NCBI GenBank assembly: GCA_029547025.1
Contig: JAKPQA010000226.1
Coordinates: forward strand, 26,586-90,585
Direction: 5' to 3'
DNA length: 64,000 nt
Source: Armatimonadota bacterium
GTDB lineage: Bacteria; Armatimonadota; Zipacnadia; UBA1398; JAKPQA01
Below are positions 13,922 through 24,402 of this stretch, piece by piece. The translations under genes were made by a program, and so were the position numbers. Under the pieces are notes generated by a model. It had not been told where the DNA came from, did no database searches, and worked only from the letters and a program-made list of their open reading frames with translations. Position 1 is the stretch's first letter. Each line of letters opens with the position of its first letter.

Positions 13922-14255
13922 TCCCGCTGTCCATCGGCCTCTCACGCCTGGTACGCCCGTCCGTCAGCTGCGCCCCGCCCGCGGAGCGGTATCAAGCCCA
14001 GTCACCGCCTGGAAGCATCAGGCGAGCCGGCCGCGCCGGTGGGCTCCTGTCGCATATACGCATGCCCGCACGCGCGCCTTCAGGGGGCCGGGCGCGCCGC
14101 CACCACCTGGCTTCCGGGCCCGGCATGCTTCACCCTTCAGGTGCATTGGCGGTCGCTCGGGCCCGGGTGGTGGTCGGAATGGCCGTACGCCGCCCACGTG
14201 GTTACTCCCATGGCGCCGCTCCGCAGCCAGCCCCACGTGCCGCTGGAGCCCCACG

Positions 14256-17924: not shown

Positions 17925-18692
17925 TCAGACGCTGCCCTGGGATGTCTCTGTGGTCTCGGTAGCGCTGTCAACCTCTCCCATGATGGCGTCCAGGGACTTG
18001 GTTGCCTGGCTGGGCTCCTCGGTCGTCATGCCGAGCTGCCGCGCGTATTCCTCATAGCGTTGCTCTGCCTCTTGGTCCATGGCATCGATGCTGATGTCGA
18101 CCATCTGGGCACCAACGCTCTCCTGCGCGATCTCGGTGCGCGCCTCGGCGCGGGCCAGGTCCTCGTCGATCTTCTGGGTCATTTGGTCGAGGACCTGGTT
18201 GTCGTCACCGACCTCGAAACTCATCATCAGACTCGCCATCTGCCGCTGCATCTCGGCGCGCTTGGCGCGGGAGATCTGGCGCATGGACTCCTGGATCTCC
18301 TGCTGGATCTTGCGCTCGTAAGACAGACGGGCGCGCTTCACCTGCTCCGAGTTTTGCTTGGCCTGGGCCAGTTGCTGCTCGGTCTCGGCCAGATCGAGCT
18401 TGGTGGTCTCGAGCTGCGAGATCAGCGACTTGGCAATCTCCTTGCGCGAGGGGCCGAGCTTGACCGCGGCCACGACCTGCTTCTCGAGGTCTGCGGCCTT
18501 CTGACGGAGGCGCTCGGCCTGCATCGCGAGCATCTTCTCAAGCTTCACCACCTCAGCGGTCTGGCGGTTGAACTCGGGGATTCGCGATCGCAGATCGTCG
18601 ATGTGCTGGCGGAGGATGAGCTCCGGGTCCTCGGCGCGGCGGACCAACCACCCAAACATGGCGCGCACGACCCTGGCGAGACGCTTGAACAT
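17925..18692 (-). CDS. pspA: PspA/IM30 (ESCRT-III-like) family protein
   Basis: MFKRLARVVRAMFG..AEDPELILRQ N-terminus followed by a long coiled coil. Confidence 0.88.
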   Translation of the reverse strand: MFKRLARVVRAMFGWLVRRAEDPELILRQHIDDLRSRIPEFNRQTAEVVKLEKMLAMQAERLRQKAADLEKQVVAAVKLGPSRKEIAKSLISQLETTKLDLAETEQQLAQAKQNSEQVKRARLSYERKIQQEIQESMRQISRAKRAEMQRQMASLMMSFEVGDDNQVLDQMTQKIDEDLARAEARTEIAQESVGAQMVDISIDAMDQEAEQRYEEYARQLGMTTEEPSQATKSLDAIMGEVDSATETTETSQGSV

Positions 18693-18838: not shown

Positions 18839-19660
18839 CTAGCGGGAGGTGACGCTCTCGCGGACCCTCAGCACTGCCTCGAGCATCTCGGGCAGCTCCG
18901 CCAGCGCCACCATGTTTGGCCCGTCGCACAGGGCATGATCCGGATCATCATGAACTTCCAGGAAGAGGGCGTCGATTCCTACCGCCGTAGCCGCGCGGGA
19001 CAAATGCGCCACGAAGCGCCGGTCGCCGCCCGAGACGGTGCCGCCCGCGCTGGGGAGCTGCACGGAGTGGGTGGCGTCGAACACCACCGGGTACCCCAGC
19101 TCTCTCATGATCACCAGCCCGCGCATGTCGACGACCAGGTTTCCATAGCCGAAGACCGAGCCACGCTCGCACAGGAGAACGCCTCCCGTTCCTCCTGCTT
19201 CCACTTTGCGGGCGGCCTGGACCATGGTCTCGGGGCTCACGAACTGCCCTTTCTTCACATTGACGGGACGACCGGTGGCACCAGCGGCCACGAGCAGGTC
19301 GGTCTGTCGGCACAGGAATGCCGGGATCTGGAGGAGGTCGACGACGGCGCCGGCGGCCGTGGCTTCCGGTGGACTATGCACATCGGTAAGTGTTGGAACT
19401 CCACACTCGGTGCGGACCCGGGCCAACACCGATAGGCCCGCCTCGAGGCCCGGTCCGCGGTAGGAGTCGACTGAAGTTCGGTTCGCTTTGTCGTACGATG
19501 CTTTGAAAACGAACGGCATCGCCAGGCGCTGGGCGACCTCGCGCAGCGCGTCCGCCATCCGCAGGCAGTGATCGACGGACTCGATGACGCAGGGCCCCGC
19601 CAGGAGGGCGAGCGGGTGCCCGGGACCGATGGCGACGGGGCCGACCCGGACCGGGTTCAT
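18839..19660 (-). CDS. kdsA: 3-deoxy-D-manno-octulosonate 8-phosphate synthase
   Basis: [55 protein letters not shown]. Confidence 0.97.
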
Positions 19661-20418
19661 CGCCGCCCCTCCTCAGCCAGACGGCGGGCCATGAGCTCCC
19701 GGGCCCGCCGCAGGTCGCTCTCGGTGTCGACTCCGATGGATTCGTGCTGGGTGAGGCCGACCCAGATGCGATAGCCGTTCTCGAGGGCCCGGAGCTGCTC
19801 GAGCTGCTCGGCGCGCTGCAGGGGTGTCTGGGGGAGCGACGGGTAGCGCAGGAGGAAGTCACGTCGGTAGCCGTAGAGGCCCAGGTGCTTCCAGACGGGG
19901 CAGCGGTCCTCGGGAGACTCGGAACGCTGGTGCGGTATGGTGGCTCGGGAGAAATAGAGCGCATAGCCGCGCTGGTCGACGACCACTTTGACCGTGGACG
20001 GATCATGGAGCTCCTCGGGCGCAATGGGCGCGCGCAGAGTCGTCATCGCCAACTGGGCATCGGCGCCGAAGGGCTCGACGAGTTGCCGGATCATGTCGGC
20101 CTCGATGAAGGGCTCATCGCCCTGGATGTTGACGACCACATCCAAGTCGATGTCCGCAGCGACTTCGGCGATGCGGTCGGTGCCGGTGGGATGGTCGGGC
20201 CGCGTGAGCACCACCTCGCCTCCGTACGAACGCACCACGCGGGCGATTCGCTCGTCGTCCGTGGCCACGATGACCCGGTCGAGGACTCCGGTGGCGCAGG
20301 CGCCTTCCTGCACCCACTGAATCATGGGCTTCCCGCAGATATCGAGGAGGGCCTTGCCGGGGAGCCGGGTCGATGCGAAGCGGGCCGGGATGATGCCGGC
20401 AGCGGTGAGGGGAGCGAT
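19657..20418 (-). CDS. kdsB: 3-deoxy-manno-octulosonate cytidylyltransferase
   Basis: [53 protein letters not shown]; stop overlaps the kdsA ATG (ATGA); no canonical start near the homologous N-terminus (see findings). Confidence 0.93.
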
Positions 20419-20420
20419 GT

Positions 20421-23400
20421 CTATGCCTCCTTGCTGGCGATGCGGTCGCGATAGGCCCGCAATGCGGCAGCGGCTTTGGTTCGGGCAGCCGACCCGTCCG
20501 CCGCGTGCTCCTCCTCCTGGGTGACCACATACTCGGCCATGGCCGCGAAGAGGAGCCCGAGAGGCGGCGGATCGGACATTCCCTTCGAGCTCAACTCGTC
20601 CACAACCTGCAGCAGACGTCGCCAGTGGTCGAAGCACCGGAGCATGGCACGGGCGCGCTTGGCGGGGGTGCCGGCGTCGTCGAGGCCGGCCAGAGCCCCA
20701 TCCAGGCCATCGGTGAGGTTCCGGCGCTCCTCGTCGGAGAGCTCGTAGATCTTCCGGACGGCGCGCCCGATCAGTTCGGCGAAGCTGATCGATGGGCCCT
20801 CGGTGCTGGCCGAGATCTTCTCTTCGGAGTCATCTGCGGGGCCCGCCGAGGTGGTGTACGCGACGACCTGGCCCATCAGGTCGCGAACGGAACCGGCTTC
20901 GCCAGAAGCGGCCACGGGCACGATGTCCTCTCCGGACGTGTCTTCGTCGGCCGGCATCACCGAGGCGTAGGAGTCGAACCGGATCTCGAGCCCGCCGAAG
21001 GCACTGCTGAGACCCACGCGCTCGCGTGCGTCGGTGCTCTCGACGGCACGCGCGCAGGCCATCGTGGCGTCGCGGGAGCCCCGTACCAGGTCGGCCATGG
21101 CCGTCGAGAGCGCGGGTCCGCCCTCGACATGGACCGTGTGTTCGGCATCCATGTCCGCCGCCAGGACGCTGTAGCCACGAGAGCCGCGGATGATGTTGTC
21201 GAGAGAGAACACGGCGCTATCGGCCATCTCGCCAACGACTCGGAGCAGCTCATTGTCGCGGGCCCGGACGGGGGTCACAGGGCCGTGGCGCTTGGCACGG
21301 CCGAGGGTGATCTCTTCGGCATCCGGGCTCTCGGACGGAGCGAGCACGGATTCATCACGCGCCAACTCGGCCAGTGGCGACCCGCGCTTCTGGAGTGAGA
21401 CACCGAAGGCGGCGCCGGCTCGCTCTTCGCGTTCGCGGCGGTCCATTTCCCGCGCCGCGAGGCTCCGGGCACTGCGCTCGGACACCTCATGCACCAGGTC
21501 ACGCAGGAGCTGGTCGGTCTCGGGCCGGGCCGTGCGAGCCAGCTGGATTCGTGGGGTCTTGGGCGGGGCAGGTCCTTGCTTCGGGGCGGGTCCCTGCTTT
21601 GGGGTAGGCCGGGCCGCGGGGGTCGCCGCAGGCCGAGTCGGCGCGGTTCCGCGCCCCTTGGGTGGCGCGGCTGGCGCGGTCAGGAACGAGCGACGACGCA
21701 CCGGCGGCCGCTGCTTGCGCGCCATGGCAATCGCTGCGTAGACGGCTTCCCAGCGCTGCCCGAGTCCGTACTCGTCGGCCAGGAGGCCCCCGGATGGCCT
21801 CGCGGCGCGGCCGACCGCCGCGGACGGGGCCAGCGTCTCCGCGACGAGGACCGCTACCGGTAGGCGGGCGGGCGCGGGCAGGTCCGGTGCCGGGTACGTC
21901 CGTGCCACCTCAACGTCGGTCAATGGGGTGCCCAGAGCGGCGCGACAAGCTCGGGCTTCGGCTGGTGGCGCTAGCTCATCAGCCCGCAGGAGCGGGACCG
22001 GCCGCCGCAACACTACAGCGACAGGCGGCCGAGGGTAGAGGGCCGCGATCTCGGCCGCGGTGCGGGCCGCGCCGAGCTCGCGCGATGGGGATCGAGGGAC
22101 CGCCCCGAGCTTCCGAGCCAGACCCCGGACCGGGCCATTCGCCGCGAAGAACGCGGACCCGTCCACCGGCGCCTCGGCGTGGAGTAGCGGGATCCGCCGG
22201 CGCGTGACCACGTCGACATCAGCTGGCGGGTAGAGCAGCTCGGTCTCGCCTGCCAACAGCGGGTTCTGCCGGCCGTCGGCCCGGCCGCGCTGCTGCGGCG
22301 GCCGGTCGCCGCAGCTCCGACGCGCGAGCTCATCGGGAAGGAGCACCATAATGCGGCGCCGGACCACGAGATCGATGGGCGCCATGGGGTAGAGGCGGGC
22401 GACCTCATCGGCCACCGCGGGGCCGGCCACGGCGGCGGCAGACCCCGCGGCCTGCCGCACGGCGGAACTGGCCAGAGCCAGCTCCTCATCGAGGACCAAC
22501 TCGAGGGCCTCCCGCTCGACGGGGCCAGGCTCGGGGAGCTCCGAGGCGTCCGGCTCGGCCCGTTCGGCCCGCTCCGCGCCCGCCGCCCCCCCGAACAGCT
22601 GCGCCAATCGCGAGGCGGCTCCTTCGTCCTCGACAACGACCGGCGCCACGTCGAAGCCGAGCATCGACGCCGCCGCTCGACCGACCCACGCGGGAGACAC
22701 CCCCACACCGTCTTCGCTGCGGGCTTCCTCTGCCGACTCGGTGGCCCGCAGTGCGCTGGCAACGAGCTCGCCGAGACCCTTCTCGACCACAGGCTCCGCG
22801 CCGAACGGAGCCTCCTCGTCGTCGGCAGCGGGCGACGGTGTGGTGGCCCGCGGCTCTTCTGCGAGCGCCCCAACCGGCTGGGGTTCGGGCTCGGGCTCAG
22901 CGACGGGCAGGGGCTCGGGCTCCTGCTGGGCCACCTCGAGCGGCTGGGGTTCGGGCGAGGCGCCCGATGGCTTGGTCTCGCCCTGGGCCCTTGCTTCATC
23001 ATGCTCGAGAGGCTCGTCCAGGTCTTCGGCGCCCCGCGCGCGCTTCTGGGCGAGCTCGGTCCGGCGCTGACGCTGCAGCGCGGCGAGGAACGACTGGAGA
23101 TCGAACTCCTCGGATGCCCCGGAGGCCTCGGCAGGCTGAGACGGGGACGCCGCGGTCGAGTTCGAGTCCGCGAGCGCCTCCTGGTCCGCGTCCTCCTCCC
23201 ACGCGTCATCGCCCGGCTGGTCGACCAAGGGCACGTCACCGACCCGGGGAACGTGGCGCGGAACCGGCTTTGGAGCTGGGGAAAGCACGACGCCGGAGGG
23301 GCATGCGATGCGCGGCCCAATGTTCGGCCGCACGCTGGCCAGGGCATCGAGCAGGGCAACAGCTGAGGGGTATCGCTCTTCGGGGCGGAGCGAGAGGCAG

Positions 23401-24104
23401 TGCCGGAGGATATCGTCGGTGACGGAGTCGCCGGTCTCGGGCATCCAGTCGGCGAGGGGGCGTCCGGACCCCAATGCCTCGAGAACGCTGTGAACGCCGA
23501 AGCTGCCGCGCGCCATCCGCATGAGCAACAGGCCCAGGGAGAAGACGTCGCCGGATGGCGACGGAGAGGCACCGTTCAGCACCTCGGGCGCCATACAGTC
23601 CTCGGGCGGTGCCGAGACGTTGTCCTCGTCGTCCGGTGCGGGCAGGAGAGGGGACTTGAGCAGACCGATGTGCGTCACACGCACGTCGCCTCTGGCCGTC
23701 AGGAACACATCGGTGGGTCGGATGCCAATGGCCAGTAGGGGGGGCGAGACCTGGTGGCAGGCGGCGACCAGGTCGGCCACTTGGTGCAGGATCGCGAGGG
23801 CCTGATCGCGGCCGATGCCCTCCTCATCCAGCACGTGGGACAGATGCCGCGGGCCGAGGTCCTCCTCCACAGAGAACGGGATCCTCTCGACGAAGCCGAC
23901 TTCGATGATCGGGTTGAGCCGGGGATGCCCGACTTTCGCGAGCGCCTTGGCCGATGTCGTGAAGTGGGCCACCCACTCGGGGTCCTGAGCCAGCTCCGGG
24001 CGGAGGACTCGGACGACGAACGGCTTCCGCGCGCTGTCGACGCCCCGGTAGGCGTACGCGGCCGGGCCCACGCCGACGCGGCCGGCGATCTTGACCTTGC
24101 CCAC
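20421..24104 (-). CDS. 1227-aa protein: N-terminal Hanks-type pseudokinase, acidic/Pro-rich linker, internal repeats, C-terminal helical domain
   Basis: Kinase subdomains recognisable (MAPE, DVFSLG, RPEERY) but catalytic motifs degenerate; no TM or signal peptide. Confidence 0.8.
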   Translation of the reverse strand: MGKVKIAGRVGVGPAAYAYRGVDSARKPFVVRVLRPELAQDPEWVAHFTTSAKALAKVGHPRLNPIIEVGFVERIPFSVEEDLGPRHLSHVLDEEGIGRDQALAILHQVADLVAACHQVSPPLLAIGIRPTDVFLTARGDVRVTHIGLLKSPLLPAPDDEDNVSAPPEDCMAPEVLNGASPSPSGDVFSLGLLLMRMARGSFGVHSVLEALGSGRPLADWMPETGDSVTDDILRHCLSLRPEERYPSAVALLDALASVRPNIGPRIACPSGVVLSPAPKPVPRHVPRVGDVPLVDQPGDDAWEEDADQEALADSNSTAASPSQPAEASGASEEFDLQSFLAALQRQRRTELAQKRARGAEDLDEPLEHDEARAQGETKPSGASPEPQPLEVAQQEPEPLPVAEPEPEPQPVGALAEEPRATTPSPAADDEEAPFGAEPVVEKGLGELVASALRATESAEEARSEDGVGVSPAWVGRAAASMLGFDVAPVVVEDEGAASRLAQLFGGAAGAERAERAEPDASELPEPGPVEREALELVLDEELALASSAVRQAAGSAAAVAGPAVADEVARLYPMAPIDLVVRRRIMVLLPDELARRSCGDRPPQQRGRADGRQNPLLAGETELLYPPADVDVVTRRRIPLLHAEAPVDGSAFFAANGPVRGLARKLGAVPRSPSRELGAARTAAEIAALYPRPPVAVVLRRPVPLLRADELAPPAEARACRAALGTPLTDVEVARTYPAPDLPAPARLPVAVLVAETLAPSAAVGRAARPSGGLLADEYGLGQRWEAVYAAIAMARKQRPPVRRRSFLTAPAAPPKGRGTAPTRPAATPAARPTPKQGPAPKQGPAPPKTPRIQLARTARPETDQLLRDLVHEVSERSARSLAAREMDRREREERAGAAFGVSLQKRGSPLAELARDESVLAPSESPDAEEITLGRAKRHGPVTPVRARDNELLRVVGEMADSAVFSLDNIIRGSRGYSVLAADMDAEHTVHVEGGPALSTAMADLVRGSRDATMACARAVESTDARERVGLSSAFGGLEIRFDSYASVMPADEDTSGEDIVPVAASGEAGSVRDLMGQVVAYTTSAGPADDSEEKISASTEGPSISFAELIGRAVRKIYELSDEERRNLTDGLDGALAGLDDAGTPAKRARAMLRCFDHWRRLLQVVDELSSKGMSDPPPLGLLFAAMAEYVVTQEEEHAADGSAARTKAAAALRAYRDRIASKEA
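21829..22406 (-). repeat. Four copies of a ~28-aa protein repeat E-x3-[LT]YP-x5-6-[VA]-x-R-x-[IPL]-x-[LV]L-x-[ADE]E
   Basis: EVARLYPMAPIDLVVRRRIMVLLPDELA; ETELLYPPADVDVVTRRRIPLLHAEAPV; EIAALYPRPPVAVVLRRPVPLLRADELA; EVARTYPAPDLPAPARLPVAVLVAETLA. Confidence 0.8.
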
Positions 24105-24402
24105 CGTCTGTGCCGGCCGGATGGGCGGCCGGAGCCCGAAGATGACGGACAGCGTTCTCCGCTCCAGTGGGTAGTCAGCCCCTCAGCGGCCGTTACGCCG
24201 TCTCGCGATGCCGCGGTGGGGGCTCTACCATGCCGCCCGGCGCCTGCTGTGACGCAGCAGCCAACGCCCGGGCCTCAGGTCCATTCTACCTCGTGGGCTC
24301 GGGCCCATCACCGCCCTTGGTGGCGGGGATTGGCGAAGGCTTGGGGCAGGACCCGACCGAACCTATGCCCCGTGTGGGCCATGACCTTGGGGGGCACTGG
24401 AC

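Follow-up and report, generated by a model that had tools for sequence, protein, structure and literature searches.

A 64,000-nt stretch of contig JAKPQA010000226.1 from an Armatimonadota bacterium (hereafter, the window) encodes a Hanks-type pseudokinase that is cytoplasmic and belongs to a small family not classified before. Its gene, termed PsK, ends at the start of kdsB, which encodes the cytidine monophosphate-3-deoxy-D-manno-octulosonate (CMP-Kdo) synthetase of lipopolysaccharide (LPS) synthesis. The kind of protein is known, but the PsK family is new and narrow in distribution, and its fixed partner is unusual. The best joint explanation of our results, to which we give about an even chance, is that the non-catalytic PsK binds or positions a partner, with KdsB as the prime candidate, and tunes or localizes the CMP-Kdo supply. 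The positions of all features are listed in Table 1.

The kinase fold of PsK was recognized by both profile and structure. Residues 1–262 matched the NCBIfam PknB-type profile (E 7e-14) and Mycobacterium tuberculosis PknA (4ow8; E 1.4e-12), and just missed the cut-off of Pfam Pkinase PF00069 (E 3e-7, 30.5 bits against 31.7 bits), which the PsK orthologues exceeded with 33.6–58.5 bits. An AlphaFold2 model of this domain, built on a 31-sequence alignment, had a predicted local distance difference test (pLDDT) score of 83.6 and a predicted template modelling (pTM) score of 0.84. The best Foldseek match of the model was 4ow8 (template modelling score 0.78, E 7e-16), and it superposed on PknA, PknI, Nek7, PAK1, and CDK2. 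In an alignment with 30 ordinary kinases, the catalytic columns, defined as those conserved to at least 90%, were K32, E51, H125, D127, K129, N132, D145, and F146; PsK has R, S, A, G, R, D, H, and I at these positions, respectively, and retains the structural residues H117, P173–E174 (of the APE motif), D186, and R244. A kinase fold counts as a pseudokinase when one or more of three residues, the β3 Lys, the HRD Asp, and the DFG Asp, are missing. All three are lost in PsK (R32, G127, and H145), and the αC Glu and the catalytic-loop Asn are replaced by Ser and Asp. No transmembrane (TM) segment was found in PsK, the maximum 19-residue Kyte-Doolittle mean being 1.38, and there is no leader, as the N-terminus is the kinase domain itself. 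A first-pass annotation made from the letters had described a retained kinase fold, a list of altered motifs, a pseudokinase by the standard definition, and no TM segment; each of these descriptions proved correct, and every motif it quoted was found as described. Judging from the substituted residues, the PsK of the window is presumably incapable of phosphorylation and probably does not bind ATP.

The selection acting on PsK was estimated using its only close relative. Word-index searches with the full-length protein and the kinase domain over 5.8 billion proteins yielded one close orthologue, P0002, on a Joint Genome Institute (JGI) metagenome contig; the remaining matches were ordinary kinases of ≤33% identity. 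P0002 is 78% identical to PsK overall and 90–91% identical in the kinase domain, and has the same substituted motifs and the same neighbour genes. The ratio of nonsynonymous to synonymous substitution rates (dN/dS; Nei-Gojobori estimate, window genes against the P0002 locus) was 0.20 for the whole gene and 0.097 for the kinase domain, well below 1, the limit that the first-pass annotation had proposed to check. The values were 0.026 for residues 858–940, 0.075 for residues 941–1110, 0.167 for the tail (residues 1111–1227), and 0.20–0.42 for the linkers and repeats, and those of the neighbours were 0.109 (kdsB), 0.085 (kdsA), and 0.031 (pspA). Constraint on the dead kinase head and on the orphan C-terminal region is thus as strong as on the adjoining essential enzymes. 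Because the values for the folded parts (0.03–0.17) are near those of kdsA and kdsB, PsK is a selected gene and not a product of decay. Selection did not weaken when the nucleotide and metal ligands were lost, and the conserved function would therefore need none of those residues. That a former kinase gene is decaying here, or that annotation was misled by the GC-richness of the genome, might be suspected from the Pfam score slightly under the gathering threshold and from the low-complexity middle of the protein, which is overlapped by many spurious open reading frames (ORFs). This view is effectively refuted by the dN/dS of the folded parts, a 3.7-kb frame that is unbroken in two independent assemblies, the occurrence of orthologues in three families, and the confident prediction of a kinase fold.

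Distant orthologues were sought upstream of kdsB in related genomes. Proteins of 35–40% identity were identified in the same order only, in three families (f1, the window lineage; f2; and f3). The closest related genome, G001, which belongs to another family of the order, encodes a 596-aa protein with a kinase-like domain 38% identical to that of PsK (E 7e-37), followed by an acidic Glu/Pro-rich linker and a short helical tail. When a family profile built from the three domains was searched across 79 genomes of the class, it scored 538 bits in G000, 490 bits in G001, 208 bits in G004, and 204 bits in G005, against ≤117 bits for all other kinases of these genomes. No match outside the order was found at E ≤ 1e-36 in a 401-genome sample of the phylum. 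In G003, only the C-terminal part of PsK is present, as the contig terminates inside the gene. The G001 branch also includes P0114, a partial NCBI protein of 473 aa with 63% identity to the G001 protein; the source label of P0114, 'Dehalococcoidia bacterium', conflicts with the LPS-bearing lineage of its relatives, and its contig of 1.7 kb may be mis-binned. Pure Glu-Pro coding runs, (EP)n, split PsK over two contigs in G004 and G005, and PsK would be missed in synteny surveys. The split contigs meet at the L123 end and L126 start, and at the L124 start and L125 end, and gene callers would give two fragments in each case.

In a tree of six family sequences and 15 active kinases from the genome of the window and other genomes of the class, the family formed one clade (support 100/100) on a stem of 1.36 changes per site, with f2 sister to f1 plus f3. 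The family thus has a single origin, at the base of one order. None of the six sequences has the HRD Asp, in place of which stand AIG, LGG, YAI, or YAV; likewise, the catalytic-loop Asn is Asp in each of them (RPTD or GPRD), and the αC Glu is missing at the aligned position throughout. The β3 Lys (AVKVL, ALKVL, VIKIL, and VLKTL) and the DFG Asp (DPS, DAS, and DMS) are kept in f2 and f3. A K/R-S-P following the HIG/DxS position is conserved. The first-pass annotation had asked whether the degenerate motifs are shared by orthologues; this held for the HRD Asp, the Asn, and the αC Glu, but not for the β3 Lys and the DFG Asp. Its refuting condition, orthologues that keep K/D/D, thus applies to two of the three residues, but the family taken together is old and dead by definition. 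These comparisons indicate that the former three residues had already been lost in the common ancestor, and that the K-to-R change at β3 and the D-to-H change at DFG are recent and specific to the window lineage. Given the tree and the retention of K and D in the sister families, the catalytic base was lost first and the other two residues later. The family thus shows a kinase active site being eroded step by step while purifying selection stays constant, and offers a natural test of the purpose for which the fold is retained when catalysis has been lost.

The residues kept in f2 and f3 bear on the alternative that PsK is an unconventional enzyme or a nucleotide sensor. Its fold would then bind nucleotide, either for non-canonical catalysis or for sensing of ATP or CTP that gates KdsB, above all in the sister families with the β3 Lys, the DFG Asp, and an Asp at the metal-binding Asn. 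SelO, SidJ, and the sugar kinases WaaP and KdkA are kinase folds with non-canonical reactions. In line with this idea, f2 and f3 keep K and D-x-S, all members are acidic at the Asn position, G001 has a Gly-rich loop with little damage (GGGRSSF), and PsK in f3 lies between two nucleotidyltransferase genes; ATP binding by other means is also predicted for some bacterial 'pseudokinase' families (PMC12599244). However, none of the members has a catalytic base at the HRD position, and the PsK of the window, without K, the αC Glu, HRD, N, and the DFG Asp, is under equally strong selection. PsK also gave no match to PF06293 (Kdo/WaaP kinase) at E ≤ 1. The LPS-core kinases of that family resemble PsK in having a protein-kinase-like fold among LPS-core genes, but KdkA and WaaP actively phosphorylate sugars and their catalytic Asp residues are intact, whereas PsK lacks the catalytic base. 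We consider this alternative quite improbable.

The junction between PsK and kdsB was examined for translation signals. It reads AAG GAG GCA TAG AC ATC, in which the ATC lies 7 nt past a perfect AAGGAGG Shine-Dalgarno sequence in the last three PsK codons. When kdsB is read from this ATC, position 1 of the Pfam CTP_transf_3 profile falls at residue 7. The alternative ATG is 95 nt downstream, and the metagenome gene call, which begins at an internal ATG and gives 222 aa, would drop the conserved N-terminal nucleotide-binding motif IIPARxxSTRLPGK. At the P0002 locus (L001 ~13995–14010), the ATC and the Shine-Dalgarno sequence are conserved, and the upstream kdsB frame has an in-frame stop and no ATG, GTG, or TTG. 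These observations suggest that the true kdsB start is most likely the non-canonical ATC rather than the downstream ATG. Because the Shine-Dalgarno sequence is in PsK and the ATC is 2 nt past the PsK stop, kdsB translation is most likely coupled to PsK termination. In all five loci with an assembled junction, the PsK stop lies 0–20 nt from kdsB on the same strand. The PsK TGA overlaps the kdsB GTG in G001 (GTGA, 4-nt overlap), the two genes abut in G003, and they are separated by 18 nt, including a GAGGAGG ribosome-binding site, in G004. In G005, no canonical start is present between the stop and the conserved VIPARF motif; kdsB is without a canonical start codon in G005, G000, and the JGI orthologue.

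The genes around this pair were also compared. PsK is followed in the window by a co-oriented run of kdsB, kdsA, pspA, and a TrkA-like gene, and a gene for a GT-C-like membrane protein is divergent upstream. kdsA adjoins kdsB in the window lineage and outside the order, but not in f2 and f3. In a search with KdsA, intended to check the phylum, the matches had ≤62% identity and were scattered across many phyla. Outside the order, class members (L104, L108, and L109) have a gene for an rfaE2-like cytidylyltransferase (rfaE-domain-II-like, TNGCFDxLHxGH) followed by kdsB and kdsA, which seems to be the ancestral arrangement for the class, whereas f3 has the rfaE2-like gene, PsK, and kdsB. These arrangements show that PsK was inserted into an LPS-core sugar-activation cluster, between the rfaE2-like gene and kdsB. 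The first-pass annotation had placed PsK, its stop abutting kdsB, at the head of a kdsB-kdsA-pspA 'envelope run' and had linked it to Kdo/LPS synthesis or envelope stress. The abutment turned out to be tighter than a standard ORF call gives, and of the kds synteny the PsK-kdsB pair is kept across the three families, but kdsA and pspA are not. The run as a whole is specific to the genus-level window lineage, and a link to pspA or envelope stress found no support.

On the explanation we favour, PsK would act without catalysis, with a long acidic/basic Pro-rich spacer of variable length between a folded, kinase-shaped head and a conserved C-terminal module. It may bind or position a partner, and KdsB is the prime candidate, its translation being most likely tied physically to the point where the PsK frame ends. 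The likely effect would be that the CMP-Kdo supply for LPS core assembly is tuned or localized. PsK may work under the control of the active Ser/Thr kinases of the cell, like the MviN pseudokinase domain for peptidoglycan. It is gene order that makes a role of PsK as a scaffold or regulator of KdsB plausible. Several points weigh against this explanation. An alignment of KdsB proteins from loci with and without PsK revealed no co-varying feature, the C-terminal module has no recognisable fold, and co-transcription alone can preserve gene order. A contact between PsK and KdsB is putative. Furthermore, the family is tiny and known solely from metagenome assemblies, and the genome G002 (98% complete, a congener of G004) has no PsK beside kdsB or elsewhere; at least one lineage can therefore dispense with PsK, or else the assembly missed the gene.

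Some of the same observations fit a PsK that is a real non-catalytic signalling scaffold, e.g., an allosteric partner or substrate of an active Hanks kinase, unrelated to Kdo. It would have been retained before kdsB solely because it landed in an essential, constitutively transcribed operon, with kdsB translation becoming dependent on it later. The genome of the window has seven intact Hanks kinases (its active kinases include one of 613 aa on contig C6), pseudokinases often pair with active paralogues (PMC12599244), KdsB has no PsK-specific features, G002 keeps kdsB without PsK, and the genes flanking the PsK-kdsB pair differ between families. On the other hand, the two genes have stayed 0–20 nt apart though the kinase domain has diverged to 35–40% identity and the surroundings have been reshuffled, and the f3 PsK has LPS-core nucleotidyltransferase genes on both sides. 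We regard such a passenger role as possible, if somewhat doubtful. A closer tie to KdsB than the one we favour can also be imagined, in which PsK is an obligate, co-translated partner of CMP-Kdo synthetase at a ratio fixed by re-initiation, and KdsB is held and placed or switched. Ribosomes ending PsK would re-initiate on a kdsB that lacks a canonical start, giving a fixed protein ratio; the kinase-shaped head or the orphan tail would hold KdsB; and the spacer would site KdsB at LPS core assembly, or would let Ser/Thr phosphorylation switch the Kdo supply. Such a partnership seems unlikely; if true, no Hanks-type control point of LPS synthesis would have been described before it, and it would be an LPS counterpart of the PknB-MviN-FhaA peptidoglycan switch.

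PsK was compared with known kinase-fold families. A 2025 review lists seven bacterial pseudokinase families, ActPs1–3, GLW, CP1, DYD, and DLHK (PMC12599244), and by motif, domain partner, membrane anchoring, or phylum PsK fits none of them. The GLW family has GLW in place of HRD, Leu or Trp at β3, and a C-terminal TM helix, whereas the PsK family has AIG, LGG, or YAI and R or K at these positions, and PsK has no TM helix. CP1 is linked to a COG3899 AAA_16-type ATPase; no ATPase domain was found in PsK in Pfam/NCBIfam at E ≤ 1 to 10. DYD pseudokinases share with PsK a β3 Arg and the absence of the αC Glu, but they are membrane-associated, have DYD for DFG, and keep the Asn, whereas PsK has HIG, Asp in place of Asn, no HRD Asp, and no TM segment. 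DLHK retains the HRD Asp and the Asn and carries helicase/DNA2 domains; both residues and a helicase domain are absent from PsK. The HRD Asp is lost in all PsK members but kept in DLHK and DYD. Like PsK, the GLW, CP1, DYD, and DLHK families are conserved bacterial kinase-fold families that are dead by sequence, and CP1 and DLHK are also cytosolic. PsK differs from these four in its phylum, in having no GLW or DYD motif and no COG3899 ATPase, helicase, or PQQ domain, and in its fixed partner gene, none having been reported for them.

The nearest functional analogue of PsK is the pseudokinase domain of MviN/MurJ in M. tuberculosis, a member of the ActPs3 family (PDB 3UQC), which is phosphorylated by PknB, recruits FhaA, and restrains peptidoglycan synthesis (PMC12599244). 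Both are bacterial Hanks folds with lost catalytic motifs that are tied to the synthesis of an envelope polymer precursor. MviN is thought to be a docking platform and not an enzyme, and PsK may be likened to it. However, the MviN domain forms part of a membrane flippase protein and works on peptidoglycan, whereas PsK is a soluble protein from a separate gene that is coupled to a cytoplasmic LPS enzyme. ActPs3 is actinobacterial and is marked by the MurJ/MviN membrane fusion, VALT, and LSIDHP, while PsK has VVRV and AIGIRPTD, no TM segment, and belongs to another phylum; the motifs are AIG/R/HIG in PsK and LSID/T/Y-- in MviN. Unlike MviN, PsK has a 600-aa spacer and an orphan C-terminal module, and a phosphosite and an FHA partner are known for MviN only. 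The closest sequence and structure matches of PsK, PknA (4ow8), PknB (1mru), and Streptococcus pneumoniae StkP (identity 23–28%), share with it the bilobal fold, the APE motif, the αF Asp, and the αH-αI Arg. PsK differs from them in that all catalytic and nucleotide/metal-binding residues are replaced and in having no TM helix, PASTA domain, or other sensor domain.

To our knowledge, hardly any of the catalogued bacterial pseudokinases has been given a role; the single case worked out is MviN, which regulates cell-wall precursor export. KdsB activates the LPS sugar Kdo and is an essential LPS enzyme, and we know of no protein-level regulator of it. The PsK family offers a concrete candidate partner, KdsB, for a separate pseudokinase, and its linkage to kdsB hints at non-catalytic control of outer-membrane sugar synthesis. 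The impact is limited: the family occurs within a single order of uncultured bacteria, of which one member apparently does without PsK.

The remaining parts of PsK were analysed region by region. At its start, the orthologue P0002 has an ATG one codon upstream of the position equivalent to the GTG. The first-pass annotation had counted ~850 aa of low-complexity sequence and repeats before a helical C-domain; this overstated the region, as the low-complexity, relaxed part covers ~600 aa (residues 263–857) and residues 858–1227 are strongly conserved. In P0002, the repeat of the acidic tract has grown into 75-nt units, adding ~107 aa, and all four YP...RR...LL repeats are retained. No second copy of the YP-repeat region was found in the genome of the window. 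Residues 858–1227 have an ordinary composition and a mixed net charge (−2, −16, and −1 by sub-region). An exhaustive HMMER search with the last 309 aa over 1.84 billion representative proteins returned only a 388-aa record identical to the query, and the same segment gave no match in 40 relatives. No further domain was found by Pfam in three PsK sub-segments, and no match was obtained in PDB profile searches with the C-terminal alignments or when collections of genomes and metagenomes were scanned for patterns from the two-sequence alignment. The AlphaFold2 model of residues 858–1227 was unusable (pLDDT 40.6), and a Roadblock/LC7-like fold guessed at residues ~950–1050 gained no support. Comparison of the C-terminal regions between families using hhalign detected only a tail motif of 46–48 columns (E 8e-5 to 5e-4, probability 33–61%). 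A promoter scan of the divergent region upstream of PsK detected no sigma-70 consensus or promoter-like site, and a terminator scan gave four terminator-like matches, which is at chance level, all within genes.

Table 1 Features of the PsK locus in the window.
Feature	Position	Strand	Remarks
pspA (PspA/IM30 family)	17925..18692	-	Linkage specific to the window lineage
kdsA	18839..19660	-	4-nt overlap with kdsB
kdsB (CMP-Kdo synthetase)	19657..20418	-	Probable start ATC 20416-20418, 2 nt after the PsK stop
Pseudokinase gene (PsK)	20421..24104	-	1227 aa, GTG start; longest frame over the locus
Conserved orphan C-terminal region	20424..21533	-	Residues 858-1227; dN/dS 0.03-0.17
Shine-Dalgarno AAGGAGG for kdsB	20426..20432	-	Inside the last PsK codons (K-E-A-stop); conserved in P0002
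C-terminal tail motif W...LF..[LM]AE[HY]V	20508..20645	-	Weakly common to other-family orthologues
Basic Pro/Arg/Lys-rich tract including PKQGPAPKQGPAP	21534..21809	-	Residues 766-857; net charge +15
Four 'E-x3-LYP...V-x-RR...LL' (YP...RR...LL) repeats	21810..22424	-	Residues 561-765; net charge +5; dN/dS 0.31
Acidic Glu/Pro/Ala-rich linker	22425..23318	-	Residues 263-560; net charge -38; dN/dS 0.20-0.42
Short (GAGCCN)n DNA repeat inside the acidic linker	22876-22922		
Hanks-type kinase-fold domain, catalytically degenerate	23319..24104	-	Residues 1-262; dN/dS 0.097
HIG instead of DFG	23664..23672	-	Residues 145-147; from alignments; orthologues DPS, DAS, or DMS
Catalytic loop AIGIRPTD in place of HRDxKxxN	23709..23732	-	Residues 125-132; from alignments
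Arg32 codon replacing the β3 (VAIK) Lys	24009..24011	-	From alignments; Lys retained in f2 and f3 orthologues
Divergent intergenic region, presumed promoter region	24105..24402	.	Between PsK and the GT-C-like membrane protein gene

Three further observations were made at or near these loci and in the genome of the window. At the start of the G002 contig (L106:174-447), four copies of a 37-nt direct repeat, CCCTAGCACGCCGCCCTGATGAACAAGGGATTGAGAC, occur at a spacing of 72–77 nt; this array, which resembles clustered regularly interspaced short palindromic repeats (CRISPR), lies directly upstream of kdsB, where congeners carry PsK. In the genome of the window, C336:9622-10044 (+) gave a very weak kinase-fold match (25.6 bits, in a 681-aa frame) immediately downstream of an intact kinase gene (C336:8336-9058), and may be a degenerate kinase paired with an active one. 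Finally, a pyruvate kinase gene lies upstream of the PsK locus in f2 and f3 (L103:6989-8680 in G001, L123:3406-5223, and L124:1992-3452). Pyruvate and phosphoenolpyruvate, the product/substrate pair of this enzyme, touch KdsA chemistry. The G001 pyruvate kinase, the sole copy scanned with Pfam, has a C-terminal 2x[4Fe-4S] ferredoxin-type domain (PK + PK_C + Fer4).

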